Source: Acidovorax sp.
Lineage (GTDB): Bacteria > Pseudomonadota > Gammaproteobacteria > Burkholderiales > Burkholderiaceae_C
DNA: 64,000 nt
Assembly: GCF_021287135.1 (NCBI RefSeq)
Contig: NZ_JAJTBB010000070.1
Location: 4,990-68,989, forward strand
Direction: 5' to 3'
Shown here: positions 13,476 to 26,449 of the stretch, piece by piece
Position numbering within the stretch: the stretch's first letter is position 1
Layout: each line of letters opens with the position of its first letter
Notes under the pieces: model-generated
What the model was told of the DNA's origin: nothing
Databases searched by the model: none
The model's input: only the letters and a program-made list of their open reading frames with translations
Position numbers and translations under genes: made by a program

Positions 13476-14873
13476 TCAGGCGCGCATGAGCGCTTCGATC
13501 TCGTCCGCCTTCACCGGCACGCCGCGCGTGATCAGTTCGCAGCCGGTTTCGGTCACGATGGCATCGTCCTCGATGCGAATGCCGATGTGGTGGAACGCCT
13601 CGGGCACGCCGTCGGCCGGTCGCACGTAGATGCCGGGTTCGATGGTGAGCACCATGCCCGGGCGCAGCACGCGGCTGGGGCGGTTGGTGATGGTCTCGCC
13701 GGACAGCGGGTCCTTGCGCTCGCTCACCTGCCCTACCTCGCCCGGCTCCACGTAGCTGCCGCAGTCGTGCACGTCCATGCCCAGCCAGTGGCCGGTGCGG
13801 TGCATGTAGAACTGGAAGTAGGCGCGCTTTTCAATCACGTCCTGCACGGTGCCGACCTTGTTCTTGTCGAGCAGGCCCAGGTCCAGCATGCCTTGCGCCA
13901 GCACGGCCACGGTGGCGTCGTGCGGGTCGTTGAAGCGCGCACCCGCCCGGGTGGCCGCCACGGCGGCGTCCTGGCTGGCCAGCACCAGGTCGTACAGCGC
14001 CCGCTGCGGCCCGGTGAAGGTGCCGTTGGCGGGGAAGGTGCGGGTGATGTCGCTGGCATAGCCGTCCAGCTCACAGCCCGCATCGATCAGCACCAGGTCG
14101 CCACTGCGCACCGGCGCCGCATCGGCGCGATAGTGCAGCACGCAGGCATTGGCGCCCGCGGCAACGATGGAGCTGTAGGCCGGGTACTGCGACCCCGCCT
14201 CGCGGAACGCGTGCAGCAGCTCCGCGTCCAGGTGGTATTCCCGCACGTCCTCGCCGGCGCGCAGCATGCGGGCCGAGCGCTGCATGGCGCGGATGTGCGC
14301 CTGGGCGCTGATGGCGGCGGCACGGCGCATGACGTCCTGCTCGTGCGCGTCCTTGAACAGCCGCATTTCGTCCAGCAGCGTGCACAGGTCGTTTTGCTCG
14401 GCCGGGCACAGCGCGCCAAAGCGCACCCGCGCCCGCACGGCGTTCAGCCAGCCTTCCACCCGCGCCGCCAGGCCCGGGTGCGTGGCAAAGGGGTACCACA
14501 CGCAGCGGGTGTTCTCCAGCAGGCGGGGCAGCCGGGCATCCAGGTCGGCGATGGAGTGCGCAACGTCCACGCCCAGCGCGCCGGGTGCTGTAGCGGGACC
14601 CAGCCGGTAGCCGTCCCAGATCTCGCGCTCCAGGTCCTTGGGCTGGCAAAACAGTGTGCTGCGGCCGTCCTGCGACAGCACCAGGCAGGCCCCAGGCTCC
14701 GTGAACCCGGTGAGGTAGTAGAAGTAGCTGTCGTGGCGGAACAGGAAGTCGGTGTCCCGGTTGCGCGGCTGTTCCGTAGCAGTGGGAACGACGGCGATGC
14801 CCCCGGGGCCCAGCTGGGCGGCAAGCCGGGCACGGCGTTGGGCATAGACGGAGGCGGGCACTGGGGTGTTCAT
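13476..14873 (-). CDS. pepP: Xaa-Pro aminopeptidase
   Basis: ORF trimmed to Met220 (MNTPVPASVYAQRRARLAAQL). M24 metal ligand motifs DLVLIDAGCELDGYASDITRTFP, HRTGHWLGMDVHD, TIEPGIY and IRIEDD. Confidence 0.9.
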   Translation of the reverse strand: MNTPVPASVYAQRRARLAAQLGPGGIAVVPTATEQPRNRDTDFLFRHDSYFYYLTGFTEPGACLVLSQDGRSTLFCQPKDLEREIWDGYRLGPATAPGALGVDVAHSIADLDARLPRLLENTRCVWYPFATHPGLAARVEGWLNAVRARVRFGALCPAEQNDLCTLLDEMRLFKDAHEQDVMRRAAAISAQAHIRAMQRSARMLRAGEDVREYHLDAELLHAFREAGSQYPAYSSIVAAGANACVLHYRADAAPVRSGDLVLIDAGCELDGYASDITRTFPANGTFTGPQRALYDLVLASQDAAVAATRAGARFNDPHDATVAVLAQGMLDLGLLDKNKVGTVQDVIEKRAYFQFYMHRTGHWLGMDVHDCGSYVEPGEVGQVSERKDPLSGETITNRPSRVLRPGMVLTIEPGIYVRPADGVPEAFHHIGIRIEDDAIVTETGCELITRGVPVKADEIEALMRA

Positions 14874-16045
14874 GAAGAGGTACCGCAAGGCGGGGTGGGA
14901 GTATTGAGTTCGGCCAGCCGCTCGGGCGTGCCGACGTCGGTCCATCGGCCGGTGTAGAGCTGTGCGCTGACACGGCCATTGTCCATCGCCCGCCGAAGCA
15001 GCGGGGCCAGCGGGGCTTTCACGCCGCCCGGGTTGCCGGGCGGAATGTCGCACCAGGGGGCCGAGAACAGCTCCGCGCGCAGCAGCGCGATGGTGCTGTA
15101 GGTAAAGCGCGGCACCGGGCTGCCGGCGGGCAGGTTCAGCGCCAGCCCGTCGGCCGACAGGCCAAAGTCGCCGCGCGGGTTGTGGGCGGGGTTGGGCACC
15201 AGCCACAGGTGGGCCAGGTGGCCGCTGGCGGCAAAGGTTTGCACCGCGGCGCTGTCGAACACGAAATCCGGCGCGAACACGTCGCCCGCCGCCAGCCAGA
15301 ACACCGGCCCCAGCTGCGGCAGCGCCCGTGCGATCCCCCCGGCAGTCTCCAGCGCGCCGCCAAAGTCCCGGCCTTCGTGGGAGTATGAAATTGATAGCTG
15401 CTTGCGCTTGTCCATCAAGGGCTGGAGGCCAAAAACATCTGAAAAATAGTCGCTGATCTGCTCGCCCAGCCAGGCGGTGTTGATCACCACCCGCTCCACC
15501 CCCGCCGTCTGCAAGGCCTGCAGATGCCACTGCAGCAGCGGCTGGCCTTGCACGGGCAGCAGGGGCTTGGGCGTGGTGTCGGTGAGCGGGCGCATGCGCT
15601 CGCCCCGGCCGGCGGCCAGGAGCAGCGCGGGGACCGGGCCCGGGGCTGCGGCGGGGCTTTCGGCCTGCGCCGGCAGCGCGCCCCGCTGCAGGCTGTGGCG
15701 GTGCACGGAGGTGGGCTCAAACAGCGCCAGCAGGGTGCCCAGCAGCGCCTGGGCCTTGCTGGAGTGGTCCGCGCTGAAGTTGCACACGTACACATCGAGC
15801 GTGACCGCGCGCTGCTCGGGCCAGGTGTGCACGCACAGGTGCGATTCCGCCAGCAGCACGGTGGCCGTGACGCCGCCCGGGCCGTGGGCCGATGCGGGGA
15901 ACTGGTGGAACAGCTGGCCCACGGGTTGCAGGCCGGCGGCGCGCACGGCCTCCACGCAGGCCTGGCCCAGCACTGCGGCGTCCAGCAGCCACGGGGCCGC
16001 GCAGCGGCAGCCTTGAAGATCGGCGGTGAGGTGCAGTCCTTGCAT
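14870..16045 (-). CDS. fusion protein: S-adenosylmethionine decarboxylase-like (pyruvoyl, class 1) N-domain + MurU-like sugar-1-phosphate nucleotidyltransferase C-domain
   Basis: ORF 14870..17134 trimmed to Met364 (MQGLHLTADLQGC). N-domain has VTATVLLAESHLCVHTWPEQRAVTLDVYVCNF (SpeH-type ESH processing motif). Linker is PAQAESPAAAPGPVP. C-domain has LLLAAGRGERMRPLTDTTPKPLLPVQGQPLL...ETAGG...YTGRWTDVGTPERL. No stop and no ATG/GTG lie between the domains. ATGA overlap with pepP. Confidence 0.8.
   Translation of the reverse strand: MQGLHLTADLQGCRCAAPWLLDAAVLGQACVEAVRAAGLQPVGQLFHQFPASAHGPGGVTATVLLAESHLCVHTWPEQRAVTLDVYVCNFSADHSSKAQALLGTLLALFEPTSVHRHSLQRGALPAQAESPAAAPGPVPALLLAAGRGERMRPLTDTTPKPLLPVQGQPLLQWHLQALQTAGVERVVINTAWLGEQISDYFSDVFGLQPLMDKRKQLSISYSHEGRDFGGALETAGGIARALPQLGPVFWLAAGDVFAPDFVFDSAAVQTFAASGHLAHLWLVPNPAHNPRGDFGLSADGLALNLPAGSPVPRFTYSTIALLRAELFSAPWCDIPPGNPGGVKAPLAPLLRRAMDNGRVSAQLYTGRWTDVGTPERLAELNTPTPPCGTSS
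15384..15447 (+). repeat. family A hairpin repeat, copy 1 (degenerate, inside the fusion CDS)
   Basis: tatgaaattgatagctgcttgcgcttgtccatcaagggctggaggccaaaaacatctgaaaaat. About 50 of 62 positions match copy 7 by hand alignment. Translated in frame on the minus strand as FSDVFGLQPLMDKRKQLSISY. Confidence 0.8.
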
Positions 16046-16102
16046 GGGGAGGGACTGTATTACACGCGGCAGCCGCACCAGGTGCGCTGCCACAATCGCG
16101 CC

Positions 16103-17083
16103 ATGCCCGCCCTTGCCCCCCGCAACGACAAAGCCGCCGCCACCTACGAAAAAGTTGTCGAGGGACTGGTTTTCACGCCCTTCCTGCACCTGCAGTTCCA
16201 CCTGCTGCCGCCGCTGCGCCTGGAGATTTCCAGCCGCAAGCGCGCGCCGCTGTACGTGGTGGGGACGGAGGGCTGGTGGATTCAGTGGGAGGACCAGGCC
16301 CCGATAGCGCTGGAAGCCGGCGACGTGGTGTTCCTGCCGCATGCGGGGCGCCACCAGGTCTTCACCGACCCGCAAGCCCCCCTTCAACCGTGGGAAACCC
16401 TGCTGTCGCACAAGCCCGTGCGCCACGGCTCGACCTACAACCTGACGGTGGGCGGCGATGCGGCACCGCTGGCCTGGACGGGCAGCTTCTACTGGACCGC
16501 CGATCTGGCAAGCCACCCGCTCGTCGCCGGCCTGCCGCCCGTGATGCGCATGAACCGGTCGAGCAACCCGACCTGGCTGCCCCTGATGGCCCAGGTGGTG
16601 CAATGGATCAGCGACATCCGCGCCGGCGGAAAGGGCGTGGGCATGACCCAGGCCATGACGGCCCTCCTGCAGCACCTGGTGCTCGAATGGCTGCAGGCGC
16701 CGGAGCGCGCCACGCCCGCTGCGTCGCTGGCCCCGGCGGCGGTGCGGGACCCGCGGCTCGCGCCGGCGCTGGAGGCGATCCACGCCCGCCCCGCCGAACC
16801 CTGGACGGCGACCCGCCTGGCTGCGCTGTGCCACCTCGGCCGCACCACGTTCACCCAGCGCTTCCAGGCCCAGATGCAGTGGCCGCCCATGCGGTATCTG
16901 GCGCGCTGGCGCGTGCATCTGGCCGAGCGCATGCTCAAGGAAAAGCGCCTGACGCTGCAGCAGGCGGCCGATGCCGTGGGCTATTCCACCGGCGCCATCC
17001 TCGCACGGGCGTACAAGCGTGAACGGGGCGTCGCGCCCACGCTGGAGGCCGGCGCCGAACAATCGGCTGCAAAAACGCGCTGA
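16103..17083 (+). CDS. AraC-family transcriptional regulator (cupin-type N-domain)
   Basis: ORF trimmed to Met194 (MPALAPRNDKAAATYEK). C-terminal HTH_18 region (WTATRLAALCHLGRTTFTQRFQAQMQWPPMRYLARWRVHLAERML...AVGYSTGAILARAYKRERG). Start lies 57 bp from the divergent fusion gene. Confidence 0.85.
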   Translation: MPALAPRNDKAAATYEKVVEGLVFTPFLHLQFHLLPPLRLEISSRKRAPLYVVGTEGWWIQWEDQAPIALEAGDVVFLPHAGRHQVFTDPQAPLQPWETLLSHKPVRHGSTYNLTVGGDAAPLAWTGSFYWTADLASHPLVAGLPPVMRMNRSSNPTWLPLMAQVVQWISDIRAGGKGVGMTQAMTALLQHLVLEWLQAPERATPAASLAPAAVRDPRLAPALEAIHARPAEPWTATRLAALCHLGRTTFTQRFQAQMQWPPMRYLARWRVHLAERMLKEKRLTLQQAADAVGYSTGAILARAYKRERGVAPTLEAGAEQSAAKTR

Positions 17084-17172
17084 ACAGCTGTCGCCACGGC
17101 GGCTGCCTTTCCGAAGAATCCACCACGGGCCCACAGCGGGCCCGTTTTGTTTTTCCTCGAAGGGGATTTCGC

Positions 17173-20013
17173 ATGACAGATACCCGTTGGGCCGCCCACA
17201 AACGGCGTGTGCTGGGCGCAGCCGCGCTGTGCCTGGGACTGGCCGCGGCCACAGCAGCCACCGCCGCCACCGATTGGCAGGCGGCCGGAACTTTCGCCGG
17301 CGCCCGCGCCCGCCATACCACCACGCAACTCAGTGACGGGCGCGTTCTCGTTGCCGGCGGGCAGGTTGGCTCCATGCCGCGCCCCACCACGCAGTTCTAT
17401 GACCCCGCCACCGGCCGCTGGAGCAACGGCCCCGACATGCCCGGCCCGCGCGCCGACCACACGGCCACACCGCTGCGCGACGGCACCGTGCTGTTCGCGG
17501 GCGGCATCAACGGCAGCGCATCGGTCACGGCCACCGCCACGTTCGACCCGCAAACCAACGCCTTCACCGATGCGGGCACCATGGCCGTGCGCCGCCGTCA
17601 GCACACCGCCACACTGCTGGCGGACGGACGCGTTCTGATCGCTGGCGGGCGCGGCACGAGCGGCCAGGAGGGCCTGAGATCGGCCGAGCTGTACGACCCC
17701 GCCACACGCACCTGGAGTGTTACAGGCCAGATGGGCGGCGCGGGCAAGCGCCAGCACACGGCCACGCTGCTGCAGGACGGGCGCGTGCTGGCCGTGGGCG
17801 GCATCGACAACGGCGAATCCACTACCGCCGCCGCTCTGCTGTACAGCCCCACAGACGGCACGTGGGCGGGCGCCGCGCCCCTGCCCACGCCGCGCCGCGA
17901 CCACACCGCCACGCTGCTGCCGGACGGCCGCGTGTTCGTCGCGGGCGGCTCGGACGGCACCGGCGCGCTGGCCTCCACGCTGCTGTACGACCCTGCCGCC
18001 GACACCTGGACCCCCGGCCCCACGCTGCAGACCGCACGCGAGCGCCATGCCGCCATCCTGTTGCCCGATGGCCGCGTGCTGCTGGCGGGCGGCGAGGCGG
18101 CGGGCACGCCCACCGCCGTGGTCGAGATCTACAACCCGGCCGCAGGCCTGTCGTCCGTCTTCGCGCCCCTGGCCGAGGCGCGCAGTGCGCTGGGCGCGCT
18201 GCTGCTGCATACCGGCGAGGTGCTGGTGACGGGCGGCGTGGGCGCGGTGGCGTCGCTGCAAAGCGCCGAGCGCCTGCGCTGGGACGTCTCCGCCAGCTTC
18301 AACGGCGCGCTGCCCGACACGCGCGTGCGGCCCGCCGCGACGCTGCTGCCCGGCGGCGACGTGCTGGTAACCGGCGGCAGCGCGGACAACAGCCAGGGCG
18401 GCGCGCGCGACAGCGCCTTTCGCTACCACCCGGCCACGGGCCAGTGGACAACCGCTGCCGCCATGCAGCAGCGCCGTTTCAAGCACACGGCCACGCTGCT
18501 GGGTGACGGGCGCGTGTTGGCCGTGGGCGGCCAGAACCCGACGGCGCCCGGCATCGCCAACGTCGAGATTTACGACAGCGCCGCCAACACCTGGACGGCG
18601 GTGGCCTCGCTGCAATATCCCCGCCACGGGCACACCGCCACCCTGCTGGCCAACGGCAACGTGCTGATCGCGGGCGGCAGCGACGGCACCGTCGGCTCGG
18701 CCGGGGTGGCCGAGGTGTTCAGCCCCGCCACCAGCACCTGGCAGCCGGTGGGTGCGCTGCAAAGCCCGCGCACCGGCCACACCGCCACGCTGCTGCCCGA
18801 CGGCCGCGTACTGGTGGCGGGCGGATCCGTGGGCAACCAGCCCACCGGCAGCGTGGAGATTTACCACCCCGCCACCGGCCAGTGGAGCGCCGGCCCGAGC
18901 CTGGCCGCCGCGCGCATCCAGCATACGGCCACGCTGCTGCCCGACGGCCGTGTGCTGGTAGCGGGCGGCGGCAACAACGTCAGTGCGCTCGCCAGCACTG
19001 AAATCTACGACCCCGCCACCAACACCTGGCAGGCCACCGGCGACCTGCAGGAAGGCCGCGCCTTCCATTCCGCCACGCTGCTGCCCGACGGGCGCGTGCT
19101 GGTCACGGGCGGCTACCTCAACGCGGTGATGCTGGCCTCCGCCGAAACCTACGATCCTGCGCGCGGCGTATGGGAGCCCGCCGGTGCCATGCCCATGGCC
19201 CGCTGGGCGCACACCGCCACCGTGCTGGCGAGCGGCCAGGTGCTCATCGCTGGCGGCGGCACCAGCAACGGCTCCGCCGCCACGGTGCTCTATGGCCGCA
19301 GCAACGACGTGCCGGGCGGCCGCCGCCCCGACGCCACCAGCGCCAGCCCCGTCCTGCTTGCCACGGGCGGAACGCTGCAACTGGACGGCCAGCGGTTCCT
19401 GAGCGACAGCGAAGGCAGCGGCGGCGCCACCAGCCAGTCGGCCACGCACGCGCCCCTGGTGCGGCTGCGCCGCCTGGACGACGGCGCGGAGTTCTGGCTG
19501 CCAGCGCAGCAGTCCAGCGCCACACAGTTCACGGCACGCCCGCGCGCCCCAGGTCTGCCCGCCGGCCCCTACCTGGCCACGCTGTTCACCGGCGGCATGG
19601 CATCGGCGGGCCTGCCAGTCACCCTGCTGGCGGGCGGCGCCCCCGGCGCACCCACCAACGTTACGGCCATGCCGGGCAATGCCCAAGTCACCGTATCGTG
19701 GCAGGCGCCCGCCACCGGCACCCCGCCCGCGAGCTACACCGTGACGGCCCAACCCGGCGGCGCCACGTGCACCGTGCTGGCGCCCGCAACGAGTTGCACC
19801 GTGACCGGCCTGACCAACGGCACGGTCTATACCTTCATCGTGACAGCCACCAACGCAGGGGGAAGCTCATCGGCCCCGCCCACGGGCGGCGTGGCGCCCG
19901 CGGGCGGCTCCGGCGGTGGCGTTCAAAGCGTGCCCACGCTTTCCGAATGGGGCGTGCTGCTGCTGGCTGCGCTGATGCTCCTGGCGGGCCTGCGCACGCG
20001 CCGCCTTGTTTGA
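17173..20013 (+). CDS. secreted Kelch-repeat protein (14 blades) with FN3 domain and IPTL-CTERM sorting tag
   Basis: Signal peptide MTDTRWAAHKRRVLGAAALCLGLAAATAATAA. 14 repeats of H(T/S)ATLLxDGRVLVAGG. FN3-like APTNVTAMPGNAQVTVSWQAP...GTVYTFIVTATNAGG. C-terminus VPTLSEWGVLLLAALMLLAGLRTRRLV. Confidence 0.85.
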   Translation: MTDTRWAAHKRRVLGAAALCLGLAAATAATAATDWQAAGTFAGARARHTTTQLSDGRVLVAGGQVGSMPRPTTQFYDPATGRWSNGPDMPGPRADHTATPLRDGTVLFAGGINGSASVTATATFDPQTNAFTDAGTMAVRRRQHTATLLADGRVLIAGGRGTSGQEGLRSAELYDPATRTWSVTGQMGGAGKRQHTATLLQDGRVLAVGGIDNGESTTAAALLYSPTDGTWAGAAPLPTPRRDHTATLLPDGRVFVAGGSDGTGALASTLLYDPAADTWTPGPTLQTARERHAAILLPDGRVLLAGGEAAGTPTAVVEIYNPAAGLSSVFAPLAEARSALGALLLHTGEVLVTGGVGAVASLQSAERLRWDVSASFNGALPDTRVRPAATLLPGGDVLVTGGSADNSQGGARDSAFRYHPATGQWTTAAAMQQRRFKHTATLLGDGRVLAVGGQNPTAPGIANVEIYDSAANTWTAVASLQYPRHGHTATLLANGNVLIAGGSDGTVGSAGVAEVFSPATSTWQPVGALQSPRTGHTATLLPDGRVLVAGGSVGNQPTGSVEIYHPATGQWSAGPSLAAARIQHTATLLPDGRVLVAGGGNNVSALASTEIYDPATNTWQATGDLQEGRAFHSATLLPDGRVLVTGGYLNAVMLASAETYDPARGVWEPAGAMPMARWAHTATVLASGQVLIAGGGTSNGSAATVLYGRSNDVPGGRRPDATSASPVLLATGGTLQLDGQRFLSDSEGSGGATSQSATHAPLVRLRRLDDGAEFWLPAQQSSATQFTARPRAPGLPAGPYLATLFTGGMASAGLPVTLLAGGAPGAPTNVTAMPGNAQVTVSWQAPATGTPPASYTVTAQPGGATCTVLAPATSCTVTGLTNGTVYTFIVTATNAGGSSSAPPTGGVAPAGGSGGGVQSVPTLSEWGVLLLAALMLLAGLRTRRLV

Positions 20014-20071
20014 TCACCAAAAAAATGAGCACCCAGCGCTTTATGGGAAAGCACTGGGGCTCCAAATCATC
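20014..20071 (+). repeat. family A hairpin repeat, copy 2
   Basis: tcaccaaaaaaatgagcaCCCAGCGCTTTatgggAAAGCACTGGGgctccaaatcatc. Fills the whole spacer between the Kelch stop and the next ATG. Confidence 0.7.
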
Positions 20072-20770
20072 ATGAAAAATCCACCGACATCCTCTGTCCC
20101 GCGCCTGGACATCTACGCCGGCATCCACAAGGGCCTGCGCGCCATGATGATGGACACCCTGTCCGCCGTCGGCCGCTGCGACGCCCGCGACAGCGCCGAA
20201 ATGCAGGACGTGTGCGAACGGGTCTTGGTGCTGTGCGACACCTGCGCCAGCCACCTCGAGCATGAAAACGAATTCATCCACCCCGCGATGGAGGCGTACC
20301 GGCCCGGTTCCACCGCACCGATCGCCGCCGACCACAAAGACCACCTGCACGCCATCGCAGAGCTGTGCGCCATGGCCCGCGCACTGCCCACGGGTACTGG
20401 GCCGGATCGGCAACAGGCCGTGACGGCGCTGTACCGCAAGCTGGCGCTGTTCGTGGCCGAGAACTTCGTCCACATGCACGCCGAGGAGGCCGAGCACAGC
20501 CCGGTGCTCTGGGCCAGCCACAGCGACGCCGAACTGCGCGCGCTGGAAGAGCGCATCGCCGCATCCCTCCCCCCGGCGCAGCACCTGCTGTTCATGCGCT
20601 GGATGATTCCGGCACTGCCCACCACCGAGCGCGCCGCCCTACTGGCCGGCCTGCGCGGGGCCGCACCGCGCCCTGCCTTCGACGCCGTGCTCGACACGGT
20701 ACGGCCGCACCTGAGCGCTGGTGATTGGGCTGCATTGAACACCGCACTGACCCAGGCTTCCTCTTCCTGA
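20072..20770 (+). CDS. hemerythrin-like (HHE cation-binding) domain protein
   Basis: ORF trimmed to Met23 (MKNPPTSSVPRLDIYAGIHKGLR). Spaced His/Glu motifs (HKGLR, HLEHENEFIHP, HKDHLH, HMHAEEAEH). The family call is tentative. Confidence 0.5.
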   Translation: MKNPPTSSVPRLDIYAGIHKGLRAMMMDTLSAVGRCDARDSAEMQDVCERVLVLCDTCASHLEHENEFIHPAMEAYRPGSTAPIAADHKDHLHAIAELCAMARALPTGTGPDRQQAVTALYRKLALFVAENFVHMHAEEAEHSPVLWASHSDAELRALEERIAASLPPAQHLLFMRWMIPALPTTERAALLAGLRGAAPRPAFDAVLDTVRPHLSAGDWAALNTALTQASSS

Positions 20771-20782
20771 TCCGTACAACCC

Positions 20783-22924
20783 ATGAAAAGTCGATACCGC
20801 ACTCCCCCCCTTCGCCTCGCATCATTTGTGCTGGCTGCGCCCCTCTTGCTGGCTGGCACGCAGGCGCTCGCGCTCACCTGCCCCCCGGGCCAGTGGCTGG
20901 CTGAGTACTTTCCCAACACCAAACTATCGGGCGCAGCGGTGCTCACGCGCTGCGAAGCCGGCCCCATCGATTACTACTGGATGACCGACAGCCCCGACCC
21001 ACGCCTGCCTGTGGATGCCTTCTCCGCGCGCTGGACGGCGAGCCTGCAGTTCCACGCCGGCACCGCCCGGTTCACGACCTACACCGACGACGGCGTGCGC
21101 CTGTTCGTGAACGGCAAGCGCATCATCAACCACTGGGCGCGCCATGGCATCACCGAGGACACGGCACAGCTCCCGCTGAGCGCTGGCACGCACACGGTGC
21201 GCATGGAGTACTACGAGGCCGGCGGCGAAGGCCTGGCGCAGCTGTTCATCCAGGGCGCGGCGCCCGCCGAGCCGCCGCCACCCCCTGCGCCACCGCGCAT
21301 TACCGGCTTCACCGCGCAACCGGCCACCATTGACGCGGGGGGCACCAGCATCCTCACCTGGAACACCGACAACGCGGTGGCCTGCACGGCCAGCAGCGCC
21401 GAGGACGCGGGCTGGAAAGGCGCCCAGTCGCCCAGCGGCAGTGCCAGCGTGAAGCCCGCAGCCACCGCCACCTATGGCCTGGCCTGCCGCAATGCGGCGG
21501 GCACCGCGGCCAGCGCGGCGGTATCGGTGACCGTTCGCGTCACCACGCCACCACCACCGCCCCCTCCGCCCGAAGACACCGGCGAACTCACCGCGACCGT
21601 GACGCCTTCGGGCGTTCGGCTGGCCTGGCCCGCGTCACCCCAGGGCCGCAAGTGGGTGAATGGCTACTACGCCGGCTGGTTCTGGGAGACGTATCCGCCC
21701 GAGGCTGTGGACATGGGCACCATGACGCACTTCGTCTTTGGCCGCTATGCGCCTGCGCTGGGCTCGCTGCCGGGCGGGCGCGCCGGCGACCTGCTGGAAG
21801 GCGCAGGCGGCGCGCACGCGCAGGTGGAGGACGCACTGATCGCCAAAGCGCATGCGGCGGGCGTGAAAGCCATCATGATGGTGGGCGGCGACAGCGATGG
21901 CCCGGGCTTCCTGGCCGCCACGGCCAACGCCACCGTGCGCGCGCGGTTCATCCAGAACATCCTGGACAAGGCCGTGCAGAAGAACTACGACGGCGTGGAC
22001 ATCGACTGGGAAGAAGACCTGGACACCCCCGCAGCCCGCGCCCAGGCCCTGGCCCTGCTGCGCGAACTGCGGGCGGCCTCGCAGCAGCGGCCCCGCTACC
22101 AGGCCCAGCCCCTGGAGATCAGCTGGCCCGGCTTCTGGGTGAACAAGAACGAACCGGACATCACGCCATGGCACGCCGAGGTGGCCGGCGCGGTGGACCG
22201 CTTCAACCTCATGACCTACAGCATGGCCGGCGACTGGGGCTGGCTGTCGTGGCACCACTCGCCGCTGTTCGGCGCGGACACCTACCACCCGACATCCATC
22301 GAATCCACCGTGCAGGCGTACCTGAACGCCGGGGTGCCCCGCTCCAAGCTGGGCATCGGCATCGGGCTGTACGGGGCTTACTACAACAGCCCCGTGACCG
22401 GCCCGCGCCAAAGCCTGGACGGCATGCAGGGCTGGATGAACAACGGCGACTGGGAGAACAACTTCCAGCGGCTGGTGAACGACAACGCATTCGGGCAGCC
22501 CGGCGCCGTCTACCACTGGGACGACGTGGCCCAGCAGAGCTACATCACCTACACCCAGCCGTGGCAGCGCGGCCCCGGCACGCCGGTGACCTACCTCAGC
22601 TATGAGGACGAACGCTCCATTGCCGCCAAGGGCCAGTGGGTGCGCGCACAAGGCCTGGGCGGCACGCTGGTCTGGACGGTGAACTATGGCTACCTGCCGC
22701 TGCAAAACGCCAACCCGCAGATGCAGGCCGTCAAGCAGTCGTTCATGGACGGATCCGCGCGCTACCGCATCTACCGCGACGGCGCCCCCATCGCCACCAC
22801 CGCCGACCCGCGCTACCTCGACCCCACACCGCCCAGCGGCAGCCATGGCTACCAGGTGAGCGTGGTGGACACGCAGGGGCAGGAGGGGCCGCGCTCCACC
22901 GCAGTGGTCGTTCAGGTTCCGTAA
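20783..22924 (+). CDS. secreted PA14-domain / glycoside hydrolase family 18 (chitinase-like) protein
   Basis: Signal peptide. PA14-like YFPNTKLSG...FTTYTDDGVRLFVNGKRIINHW...VRMEYYEAGGEGLAQLF. Pro-rich linkers and an Ig-like segment. GH18 catalytic motif YDGVDIDWEE (DxxDxDxE). C-terminal beta-sandwich-like tail. Confidence 0.8.
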   Translation: MKSRYRTPPLRLASFVLAAPLLLAGTQALALTCPPGQWLAEYFPNTKLSGAAVLTRCEAGPIDYYWMTDSPDPRLPVDAFSARWTASLQFHAGTARFTTYTDDGVRLFVNGKRIINHWARHGITEDTAQLPLSAGTHTVRMEYYEAGGEGLAQLFIQGAAPAEPPPPPAPPRITGFTAQPATIDAGGTSILTWNTDNAVACTASSAEDAGWKGAQSPSGSASVKPAATATYGLACRNAAGTAASAAVSVTVRVTTPPPPPPPPEDTGELTATVTPSGVRLAWPASPQGRKWVNGYYAGWFWETYPPEAVDMGTMTHFVFGRYAPALGSLPGGRAGDLLEGAGGAHAQVEDALIAKAHAAGVKAIMMVGGDSDGPGFLAATANATVRARFIQNILDKAVQKNYDGVDIDWEEDLDTPAARAQALALLRELRAASQQRPRYQAQPLEISWPGFWVNKNEPDITPWHAEVAGAVDRFNLMTYSMAGDWGWLSWHHSPLFGADTYHPTSIESTVQAYLNAGVPRSKLGIGIGLYGAYYNSPVTGPRQSLDGMQGWMNNGDWENNFQRLVNDNAFGQPGAVYHWDDVAQQSYITYTQPWQRGPGTPVTYLSYEDERSIAAKGQWVRAQGLGGTLVWTVNYGYLPLQNANPQMQAVKQSFMDGSARYRIYRDGAPIATTADPRYLDPTPPSGSHGYQVSVVDTQGQEGPRSTAVVVQVP

Positions 22925-22934
22925 GGCGCAGTCG

Positions 22935-22996
22935 CTATCAAAACAGTAGCTGCCAGCGCTTTATGGACAAGCGCTGGCGGCCAAAATCATTACAAA
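22935..22996 (+). repeat. family A hairpin repeat, copy 3
   Basis: ctatcaaaacagtagctGCCAGCGCTTtatggacAAGCGCTGGCggccaaaatcattacaaa. Perfect 10-bp stem. Confidence 0.8.
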
Positions 22997-23104
22997 CCGC
23001 ATCGAACATTCCCCATGCCAGCTGCGCGGTGCCCGGTGGCGCGCCGTGTCCACGGGGGGCGCCGGCGCGGGTGCAGGCCGAGGCCCCACGCGCCGGCCCG
23101 GCTC

Positions 23105-23158
23105 CTGATTCGATAGCTGCCAGCGCCGGCGGCGAAAGCGCTGCAACCGTTTTGAACC
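23105..23158 (+). repeat. family A hairpin repeat, copy 4 (degenerate)
   Basis: ctgattcgatagctgcCAGCGCcggcggcgaaaGCGCTGcaaccgttttgaacc. Shares the gatagctgc left flank and the gcgct core. Confidence 0.5.
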
Positions 23159-23330
23159 GCAACCCACCGCTGGTGCCCAGTGGCTGACCCGGCCCAAGGG
23201 GAGGGAATGCCGAAGCACGGTGTCCTGCGGACGGGAGAGCCGGTGCCGCAACATCCCGGCCCGGGGCCGGGGCCGCCCCGGTAAAATGCCGGGTTTCCCC
23301 CGTACCACCACCCTGACCCCCTCCTCCCCC

Positions 23331-25373
23331 ATGGCCGACACCCAGCAATCCCAACAGATGGCCAATGCAATCCGCGCATTGGCCATGGACGCCGTTCAAC
23401 AAGCCAATTCCGGCCACCCCGGCGCCCCCATGGGCATGGCCGACATGGCGGTCGGCCTGTGGGCGCGCCACCTCAAGCACAACCCCGCCAACCCCGGCTG
23501 GTTCGACCGCGACCGCTTCGTGCTGTCCAATGGCCACAGCTCGATGCTGATCTACTCGCTGCTGCACCTCACGGGCTACGACCTGCCCATCGGCGAGCTC
23601 AAGAACTTCCGCCAGCTGCACAGCAAGACCGCCGGCCACCCCGAGGTGGGCGTGACCCCCGGTGTGGAAACCACCACCGGCCCGCTGGGCCAGGGCATCA
23701 CCAACGCCGTGGGCTTTGCGCTGGCCGAGAAGCTGCTGGCTGCCGAGTTCAACCGCGAAGGCCATGCGGTGGTGGACCACCACACCTACGCCTTCCTGGG
23801 CGATGGCTGCCTGATGGAAGGCATCAGCCAGGAAGCCATCTCGCTGGCCGGCGCCTGGAAGCTGAACAAGCTGATCGCCCTGTACGACGACAACGGCATC
23901 TCCATCGACGGCCAGGTGGCCCCCTGGTTTGCCGACAACACGCCCCTGCGCTTCGTGGCCAGCGGCTGGAACGTGATCGGCCCCATCGACGGCCACGATG
24001 CCGACAAGGTGGCCGAGGCGATTGCCGAAGCCAAGAAGCAGACCGAGCGCCCCACCCTCATCGTGTGCAAGACGCACATCGGCAAGGGCAGCCCCAACCG
24101 CGCCAACACCTCCAAGGCCCACGGCGAGCCCCTGGGCGCGGAGGAAATCAAGCTCACCCGCGAAGCCCTGGGCTGGACGAGCGAGCCCTTCGTCATCCCG
24201 CAAGAGGTGTATGCCGCCTGGGACGCCAAGGCCAGCGGCCAGCAGGCCGAAGGCGCCTGGAACGAACGCTTTGCCGCCTACCAGGCCGCCTTCCCCGAGC
24301 TGGCCGCCGAATTCACGCGCCGCATGCGGGGCCAGCTGCCCGCCAACTTTGCGCAGGTGGCGGTGGACACCGTGGTGGCCGCCCACACCAAGGCCGAGAC
24401 CGTGGCCAGCCGCAAGGCCAGCCAGCTGGCGCTGGAAGCCTTCACCGCCGCGCTGCCCGAACTGATGGGCGGCAGCGCCGACCTGACGGGCTCCAACCTC
24501 ACCAACACCAAGAGCACGCCCAACCTGCGCTTTGACCTGCAAGGCGCGGTCGTCAAGAACGAAGCCGGCGTGGGCGGCCGCCACATCAACTACGGCGTGC
24601 GCGAGTTCGGCATGGCCGCCGTGATGAACGGCATTGCGCTGCACGGCGGCTTCATCCCCTACGGCGGCACGTTCCTCACCTTCAGCGACTACAGCCGCAA
24701 CGCCATCCGCATGGCGGCACTGATGAAGCAGCGCGTGATCCACGTGTTCACGCACGACTCCATCGGCCTGGGCGAAGACGGCCCCACGCACCAGTCCATC
24801 GAGCACGTGGCCAGCCTGCGCCTGATCCCCAACCTGGATGTGTGGCGCCCCGCCGACACGGCCGAAACCGCCGTGGCCTGGAGCGTGGCCCTGTCCAACA
24901 AGAACAAGCCCACCGTGCTGGCCCTGTCGCGCCAGAACCTGCCCTACGCGCCCAAGCGCGACCTGGGCGACATCTCGCGCGGCGCCTACGTGCTGTCCGA
25001 ACCCGCCGACGTGGGCCTCAAGAAGAAGGCCGTGGCCGTGATCATCGCCACCGGCTCGGAAGTGCAGCTGGCCCTCAAGGCCCAGCGCCTGCTGGCCGAC
25101 CGCAAGGTGCCGGTGCGCGTGGTCTCCATGCCCAGCACCACCACGTTTGACCGCGAAGACGTGAAGTACAAGAAGGCCGTGCTGCCCGCGGGCCTGCCCC
25201 GCGTGGCCGTGGAAATGGGTGCCACGGACGGCTGGTGGAAGTACGGCTGCGCCGCGGTGGTCGGCATCGACACCTACGGGGAGTCCGCACCCGCGCCAGT
25301 GCTGTTCAAGCACTTCGGCTTCACCGAAGAGAACGTCGCCGCCACGGTGCTCGCCGCCCTCAAGCGCAAGTGA
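23331..25373 (+). CDS. tkt: transketolase
   Basis: ORF trimmed to Met38 ([40 protein letters not shown]). TPP motif [13 protein letters not shown]. 680 aa. Confidence 0.95.

Positions 25374-25411: not shown

Positions 25412-26449
<1,038 letters not shown>

Follow-up and report, generated by a model that had tools for sequence, protein, structure and literature searches.

The window analysed here is a 64-kb stretch of Acidovorax sp. DNA (contig NZ_JAJTBB010000070.1, positions 4,990 to 68,989). On its minus strand, a single open reading frame (ORF) of 391 codons joins a pyruvoyl-type S-adenosylmethionine (AdoMet) decarboxylase (AdoMetDC) of SpeH/SpeD class 1b to a MurU-type sugar-1-phosphate nucleotidyltransferase. 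The ORF runs from the ATG at 16045 to the TGA at 14872-14870 and its junction is free of stop codons, which confirms the proposal of an earlier model-made reading of the same letters (the first-pass annotation) that both domains are encoded as one polypeptide. The parts of the gene, with the evidence used for each, are:

14870-16045, minus strand: fused ORF, AdoMetDC (SpeH/SpeD class 1b), linker and MurU, 391 amino acids (ORF and translation, hidden Markov model (HMM) matches, AlphaFold2 model)
15680-16045, minus strand: pyruvoyl AdoMet decarboxylase domain, residues 1-122 (PF02675, PDB matches, substitution rates)
15842-15847, minus strand: Glu67-Ser68 codons GAA TCG, predicted autoprocessing site (sequence reading, alignment to the Thermotoga maritima and Aquifex aeolicus enzymes)
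15629-15679, minus strand: Pro/Ala-rich linker, residues 123-139, ALPAQAESPAAAPGPVP (junction alignment, variability among homologues, model confidence)
14900-15628, minus strand: MurU-type sugar-1-phosphate nucleotidyltransferase domain, residues 140-382 (NF045761, PDB, Foldseek)

Domain organisation of the fused protein

The N-terminal part matched the Pfam family AdoMet_dc (PF02675) over residues 5-122, covering the full model with 88.7 bits (cut-off 25; E 4e-25). Its sequence matches in the PDB were 2III (AdoMetDC of A. aeolicus, E 3e-12) and 1TLU (T. maritima). Since the top 50 Foldseek matches of the two-domain model all fell on the transferase half, it is these sequence matches that support the fold of the N-terminal domain. 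Residues Glu67-Ser68, His73, Glu77 and Cys88 align with Glu62-Ser63, His68, Glu72 and Cys83 of 1TLU (numbering counted from the alignment), and we take His73, Glu77 and Cys88 to be the counterparts of catalytic residues in the solved class 1b enzymes. All of these, together with His69, are invariant in 17 family members. The first-pass description of this part as a SpeH-type proenzyme with an intact Glu-Ser site (GAA TCG, 15847-15842) therefore holds.

Matches to the Pfam families NTP_transferase and NTP_transf_3 begin at residue 140, so that both halves anticipated by the first-pass annotation were recovered by the HMM scan. The NCBIfam MurU equivalog NF045761 aligned with residues 140-382. 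PDB matches of the C-terminal domain were headed by the MurU proteins of Pseudomonas putida (4Y7T, E 4e-48) and P. aeruginosa (8HHD, E 6e-46), with the next-best other transferase at 7e-14. In Foldseek, template modelling (TM) scores of 0.85-0.88 and identities of 44-47% were obtained with MurU structures (4Y7U, TM 0.87, 47%; P. aeruginosa MurU 8HHD, 45%), as against identities of at most 24% with other transferases. Both the MurU-like domain and the Pro/Ala linker had been described correctly from the letters, and all peptides quoted in that description are present. A lineage-specific insertion of ~20 residues (residues ~203-222, window ~15380-15440) sets the domain apart from Pseudomonas MurU; within it, residues 207-213 were modelled with a low predicted local distance difference test (pLDDT) score. 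The fused clade P0015, P0018, P0020, P0037, P0049 and P0061 has two far longer insertions (tens of residues), one at this same site and one after ALETAGG.

The AlphaFold2 model of the 391-residue protein, built with 31 homologues, has a mean pLDDT of 88 and two confident domains, and linker residues 125-131 fall below 50. The linker is thus a 17-residue Pro/Ala stretch that is predicted to be disordered; its third codon positions stay GC-rich. The earlier statement that the transferase lacks an independent start stood in part. The codons directly 5' of the transferase motif are GTC CCC GCG CTG, as quoted, and the first in-frame ATG after them, Met151, already belongs to the catalytic GxGxRMRPLT motif. 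However, an in-frame GTG exists at codon 113, within the decarboxylase domain, as the sole start-type codon 5' of the transferase. An internal MurU start at this GTG was judged unlikely, for it lies in the decarboxylase fold and has no obvious Shine-Dalgarno sequence.

The start of the fused gene could be fixed at the ATG at 16045 because the N-terminus MQGLHLTADL is conserved across all homologues. The 57-bp divergent intergenic region ahead of it (16046-16102), which reads ...CAGTCCCTCCCC-ATG, has no recognisable Shine-Dalgarno sequence before this ATG.

Between the window and six relatives, ratios of non-synonymous to synonymous substitution rates (dN/dS) ranged from 0.10 to 0.24 in the decarboxylase part and from 0.12 to 0.23 in the MurU part, hence both halves are under purifying selection.

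Separate, overlapping genes as the usual state

To place the fusion among its relatives, the N-terminal domain was scanned by alignment against one genome per GTDB species, and at least 589 of the 600 candidates listed were confirmed. The best 80 of these at least 589 loci came from Acidovorax, Paracidovorax, Variovorax, Rhodoferax, Xenophilus, Xylophilus, Ottowia, Hydrogenophaga and relatives. The state of the locus was counted in 84 related loci. Two are fused, and 63 have a separate murU downstream, in 58 cases directly adjacent to the decarboxylase gene; in the remaining 19, murU is missing from the 3 kb downstream (one has it ~4 kb away). Most of the adjacent pairs (46 of 58) overlap by 4 nt (40 ATGA, 5 GTGA and 1 TTGA) and four overlap by 11 nt. 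A translationally coupled speH-murU unit of separate genes is the norm in Comamonadaceae. With a 4-nt overlap, any frame-changing insertion or deletion just upstream of the stop merges the two ORFs.

The first-pass annotation had pointed to related Comamonadaceae as the place to look for a stop between the domains, and such a stop is found in the closest relative of the window, L002. Its MurU is 96% identical and is preceded directly by a separate 129-residue AdoMet_dc gene, with an ATGA stop/start overlap; the two genes are separate and likewise arranged in Acidovorax sp. ACV01 and A. carolinensis. In the junction alignment, the window is 17 nt shorter than L002 across the ATGA overlap, and therefore the decarboxylase and murU frames are in register. 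No ATGA remnant is left, and many substitutions add to the difference in length. On this alignment, the linker appears to consist of the old stop/start overlap and the N-terminal extension of a stand-alone MurU.

Compared with L002, positions 14726-16060 of the window form a mosaic: identity is 97-100% from pepP to ~15420, 83-90% at 15450-15650 and 70-90% in the decarboxylase part. Synonymous divergence (dS) from L002 is 0.12 in the MurU domain and 0.64 in the N-terminal domain. This pattern suggests a homologous-recombination breakpoint inside murU, located by sliding-window identity and dS:

15420-15450, no strand assigned: approximate recombination breakpoint within murU relative to L002

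A different Acidovorax lineage may be the source of the fused 5' segment and of the differing gene upstream of it.

Recurrence of the fusion

The fusion is not confined to the window. About 26 clusters (at the 90% identity level) of fused proteins were found, 368-440 residues long and 60-83% identical to the window protein, whereas stand-alone MurU proteins of named Acidovorax species (248-268 residues) are closer to it in the MurU part (85-96%). In a neighbour-joining tree of MurU domains, calculated without support values, fused forms occupy at least ten separate places among split forms. For seven fused lineages, the window included, the most similar MurU domain is that of a split gene. Linkers among the fused homologues are hypervariable in both length and sequence. 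The scattered fused forms, their split nearest relatives and the dissimilar linkers together indicate many independent mergers, or possibly fissions.

Some fused forms have persisted. In one clade, all eight clusters carry the fusion (identity to the nearest fused relative 77-91%), and more than 40 independent contigs bear the same fused allele, P0003 (GenBank HRM00395.1, MGnify MGYP003605190866). We conclude that the fused protein stays viable on an evolutionary time scale. The ESH...H...E...C residues of the decarboxylase are retained in all 26 fused sequences. Database names cover one half of these proteins only: they are labelled 'MurNAc alpha-1-phosphate uridylyltransferase' in IMG and 'S-adenosylmethionine decarboxylase' in GenBank.

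Relatives of the decarboxylase domain

A HMMER pass of the decarboxylase domain against 1.84 billion representative proteins (E<=1e-10) returned 473 relatives, mostly stand-alone proteins of 120-190 residues. Among those of ~400 residues, or cut-off versions of such proteins, 15 of 16 clusters (50% identity) combine AdoMet_dc with Spermine_synth and one is a MurU fusion. The AdoMet_dc-Spermine_synth proteins are 49-59% identical to the window in the decarboxylase part, and fusions of AdoMetDC with spermidine synthase (SpdSyn) are widespread in Burkholderiales (Casimicrobium, Cupriavidus and Burkholderiaceae metagenome-assembled genomes). One of them (L086 6001-7254, a Burkholderiaceae metagenome-assembled genome, GCA_047601745.1) aligns with the window N-terminal domain without gaps at 54% identity and is placed as the Comamonadaceae speH-murU pair is, divergent from genes for transketolase, glyceraldehyde-3-phosphate dehydrogenase (GAPDH) and phosphoglycerate kinase. 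The Comamonadaceae gene may thus go back to a locus of the AdoMetDC-SpdSyn type whose SpdSyn half was lost or replaced.

Judged by these sequence relationships, the N-terminal domain belongs to a Burkholderiales AdoMetDC clade. Fusion of its long members to an enzyme that consumes decarboxylated AdoMet (dcAdoMet) speaks for a real AdoMet decarboxylase and against a derivative acting on arginine or ornithine, as described in PMC10407285. The stand-alone Acidovorax gene is also named S-adenosylmethionine decarboxylase by NCBI.

The same HMMER pass returned three relatives, 50-58% identical, of another kind: P0168 (588 residues), P0162 (496 residues) and P0156 (558 residues). In this set the AdoMetDC domain is fused to PAS and GGDEF (diguanylate cyclase) domains, to PAS alone or to TPR repeats. 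These architectures, which are uncharacterised, put a pyruvoyl AdoMetDC domain into signalling-type proteins.

A candidate partner of the decarboxylase

Class 1b AdoMetDCs from genomes with a membrane SpdSyn-like fusion are reportedly active enzymes, with an acceptor that is said to be unknown. An operon that combines a class 1b AdoMetDC with a membrane SpdSyn-like protein and DUF350, along with DUF4178, amine oxidase and PspA or Band-7/SHOCT genes, is described in PMC11237479. This paper and PMC12803844 credit the 'polyamine-independent' AdoMetDC system to Li et al. 2019 (Biochem J 476:2579), and the latter states that bacterial membrane proteins resembling aminopropyltransferases proved to make neither spermidine nor spermine.

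Genes of this kind accompany the decarboxylase gene in relatives of the window. L088 and 12 related loci have, within 6 kb, a gene of ~515 codons with a membrane domain and a Spermine_synth-like domain, together with amine oxidase, DUF350 and DUF4178 genes. The Variovorax-type order is tkt, speH-murU-pepP, then amine oxidase, SpdSyn-like, DUF350 and DUF4178; in genera without murU at the locus, the cluster of SpdSyn-like, DUF350, DUF4178 and oxidase genes directly adjoins speH. Acidovorax species carry the SpdSyn-like gene at ~80% identity. In Acidovorax sp. FHTAMBA it belongs to a cluster of Band_7/SHOCT, DUF4178, DUF350, further genes, SpdSyn-like and oxidase genes, at a locus apart from the decarboxylase gene. 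Between DUF350 and the SpdSyn-like gene of this strain (L089 7988-10004, CP152407.1) lie UPF0149/SEC-C and N6_N4_Mtase-family genes, and the latter overlaps the start of the SpdSyn-like gene by 4 nt.

Comparison with known systems

Fusions of AdoMetDC with aminopropyltransferase (SpeD-SpeE) are said to stem from separate events in which neighbouring ORFs merged. They resemble the window protein in having an N-terminal class 1b AdoMetDC whose alpha-chain C-terminus is joined to a second complete enzyme, and their Burkholderiales members, one of them at a tkt-gapdh locus, are the closest long relatives of the window N-terminal domain. PMC12803844 describes such fusions as functional, reports on further characterised members and cites Green et al. 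2011 (Mol Microbiol 81:1109) as its reference 36. The window protein differs from these and from all described C-terminal fusions of AdoMetDC in that its second domain is MurU and not a polyamine enzyme. As MurU does not use dcAdoMet, no substrate would be handed over between the two domains.

In the SpeD1-SpeD2 (AdoMetDC-ornithine decarboxylase) fusions of Li et al. 2023, a class 1b AdoMetDC still self-processes and works with an extended alpha chain (PMC10407285); there, unlike in the window protein, the second domain is a pyruvoyl decarboxylase of the same pathway. Given that functional AdoMetDC fusions with an extended alpha chain are documented (PMC12803844 and PMC10407285), the architecture found here is mechanically plausible.

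The window N-terminal domain is orthologous to the decarboxylases of the polyamine-independent system, whose cluster stands beside or near the gene in related genomes. The difference is that the cluster is absent from the window, and in Acidovorax it is found at another locus; a link to murU through overlap or fusion does not come up in the accessible parts of PMC11237479 and PMC12803844.

With Pseudomonas MurU (4Y7T/4Y7U/8HHD), which serves the anabolic recycling pathway AmgK-MurU-MupP (PMC5371407), the C-terminal domain shares the fold (TM 0.87) and 45-47% identity over the full length. Pseudomonas murU adjoins amgK and stands alone, whereas the window murU is fused to a decarboxylase and in relatives lies downstream of the decarboxylase gene, with no amgK nearby.

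We found no report of a fusion between AdoMetDC and a nucleotidyltransferase in the searchable literature, and the papers on MurU and AmgK do not mention one. The MurU fusion and the conserved speH-murU overlap behind it were likewise not found there; the domain families and AdoMetDC fusions by adjacent ORFs are already known. The first-pass remark that the architecture was not known as a characterised enzyme thus agrees with our search, although its design is not unusual, being the merged form of a normal pair with a 4-nt overlap.

Favoured explanation and alternatives

We consider it likely that the window gene is a merged version of two coupled genes ancestral to Comamonadaceae, and that its two domains act independently. 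In the ancestral pair, the stop of a class 1b speH/speD would have overlapped the murU start by 4 nt (ATGA). A frame-changing rearrangement of the junction in the window lineage, with a net loss of 17 nt relative to the closest split relative, would have removed the stop and joined the frames, turning the old N-terminal extension of MurU into the disordered Pro/Ala linker. The proenzyme is predicted to cleave itself between Glu67 and Ser68 into a 67-residue beta chain and a 324-residue alpha chain that carries the pyruvoyl group, the linker and MurU. With the self-processing site intact in a single ORF, the alpha chain would stay attached to the transferase, as the first-pass annotation had reasoned, and the two chains would hold together, as those of other class 1b enzymes do. 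The decarboxylase would supply dcAdoMet to the membrane SpdSyn-like aminopropyltransferase of the DUF4178/DUF350/amine-oxidase cluster encoded elsewhere, and MurU would convert N-acetylmuramic acid (MurNAc) alpha-1-phosphate and UTP into UDP-MurNAc in peptidoglycan recycling. The fusion would fix a 1:1 stoichiometry that translational coupling already approximates, and is probably near-neutral. That the protein processes itself, that both halves are active enzymes and that their metabolism is uncoupled is what we infer from these findings.

Several observations weigh against this explanation. No SpdSyn-like cluster or aminopropyltransferase gene is present within the 64-kb window, and its presence in the source organism is deduced from other Acidovorax genomes. 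No gene resembling APH/AmgK, the usual partner of MurU, is adjacent, in agreement with the first-pass annotation, and none was found by Pfam among the 20 ORFs of the window; a scan of the whole window and the 84 related loci for an AmgK-type (APH) HxDxHxxN-like motif, made without an AmgK query sequence, also gave no candidate. The N-terminal domain scored 74.2 bits with TIGR03330 (SAM_DCase_Bsu, the Bacillus-type AdoMetDC equivalog), 1.5 bits short of the cut-off of 75.65, and the C-terminal domain scored 231.6 bits with NF045761 against a cut-off of 250, probably owing to its ~20-residue insertion. The exact 391-residue protein has no record among 15 billion catalogued sequences, so the junction rests on one assembly. 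Finally, the family-wide conservation of the overlap and a fusion tolerated or selected at least eight times may reflect a functional relationship.

That last point leads to a different explanation, in which AdoMetDC and MurU serve one pathway or complex and overlap and fusion were selected; polyamine-independent aminopropylation could, for instance, act on a MurNAc recycling intermediate or another envelope component, or be regulated along with it. It would account for the 4-nt overlap in 46 of the 58 split pairs across several genera, for the at least eight independent fusions, stably kept in one clade, and for the place of murU inside the neighbourhood of the SpdSyn-like system in Variovorax-type loci. 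We nevertheless hold it to be unlikely. The link is limited to one family, and inherited synteny can explain it; speH occurs without murU within 6 kb in 18 of the 84 loci (Rhodoferax, Hydrogenophaga and Ottowia); the recurrent fusion partner in the wider AdoMetDC clade is SpdSyn and not MurU; and overlapping ORFs fuse easily without selection. Moreover, we know of no chemistry that joins dcAdoMet to a sugar-1-phosphate uridylyltransferase. The coupling of decarboxylation to nucleotide-sugar formation, which the first-pass annotation had suggested, accordingly found no support in the scattered, repeated mergers, in the likely partner that the decarboxylase has of its own or in the occurrence of speH without murU downstream in about a quarter of the related genomes. 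Coupled chemistry is not needed, because the decarboxylase has that partner and occurs without murU.

On the side of a joint function also stands the association of the SpdSyn-like system with envelope-stress (PspA/Band-7) genes, described in PMC11237479 and, for Band_7, seen in Acidovorax sp. FHTAMBA; the acceptor of the SpdSyn-like enzyme is reported as unknown in PMC12803844 and PMC11237479. We see a slim chance that the overlap and the repeated fusion reflect selection for co-production or association, linking the polyamine-independent system to MurNAc/peptidoglycan recycling in Comamonadaceae. If so, the fused proteins would be a Rosetta-stone clue to the aminopropyl acceptor of the AdoMetDC/SpdSyn-like membrane system; were the coupling functional, they would give the first testable lead to the substrate of this widespread system and tie it to cell-wall recycling.

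A neofunctionalised N-terminal domain, i.e., a pyruvoyl decarboxylase for L-arginine, L-ornithine or another amino acid comparable to SpeDA and SpeDC, appears highly improbable. In its favour, arginine or ornithine decarboxylases have evolved repeatedly from AdoMetDC homologues (PMC10407285), the TIGR03330 score lies just under its cut-off, and there is no canonical soluble speE in the window or beside the fused gene. Yet the nearest long relatives are fused to Spermine_synth domains, which need dcAdoMet, the gene co-occurs with the SpdSyn-like gene and often adjoins it, and all AdoMetDC catalytic residues are conserved.

Least credible of all is an in-frame junction that arose through faulty assembly or sequencing, or as a recent lesion inactivating one or both enzymes. 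In its favour, the exact protein is uncatalogued, the closest relative split and the region a recombination mosaic. Against it stand the many substitutions and the 17-nt difference, which are not those of one homopolymer error, the lack of an ATGA remnant, the GC-rich third codon positions of the linker, the intact and conserved state of both domains and the many independent fused alleles.

As a merged pair of independently acting enzymes, the gene would be a clean natural example of coupled overlapping genes that merge repeatedly into bifunctional proteins, which matters only a little. It would also mean that a pyruvoyl enzyme that cleaves itself can carry a large, unrelated passenger at the C-terminus of its alpha chain.

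Genomic neighbourhood

The genes that flank the fused ORF are:

13476-14873, minus strand: pepP, Xaa-Pro aminopeptidase (Pfam AMP_N and Peptidase_M24)
14870-14873, minus strand: ATGA, stop of the fused gene overlapping the pepP start, translational coupling (sequence reading)
16103-17083, plus strand: divergent AraC-family regulator, Cupin_6 and HTH_18 (Pfam), 57 bp upstream of the fused gene

The first pass had read two features correctly: the ATGA coupling to pepP (14873-14870) and the distance of 57 bp from the divergent AraC-type gene, whose ATG is at 16103. In 59 related loci, tblastn located pepP, a conserved neighbour, on the downstream side of the pair. The downstream order of pepP, Rce1-like, pyruvate kinase, PAP2 and two-component system genes is common to the window, Acidovorax sp. 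ACV01 and A. carolinensis. The upstream neighbour varies: it is transketolase in A. carolinensis, and a gene of 362 codons intervenes in Acidovorax sp. ACV01. The AraC-type neighbour was considered as a dedicated regulator and rejected, as its adjacency is not conserved.

Compared with A. carolinensis, in which transketolase stands directly upstream of speH, the region 16103-25370 of the window has ~7 kb inserted between the fused gene and transketolase. The insert comprises the AraC-type regulator, a 946-residue Kelch-repeat/fn3 protein with an IPTL-CTERM sorting signal (17173-20013), a hemerythrin-domain protein and a PA14 and GH18 chitinase-like protein (20828-22924). Beyond it follow transketolase (23220-25370) and GAPDH (25415-26446).

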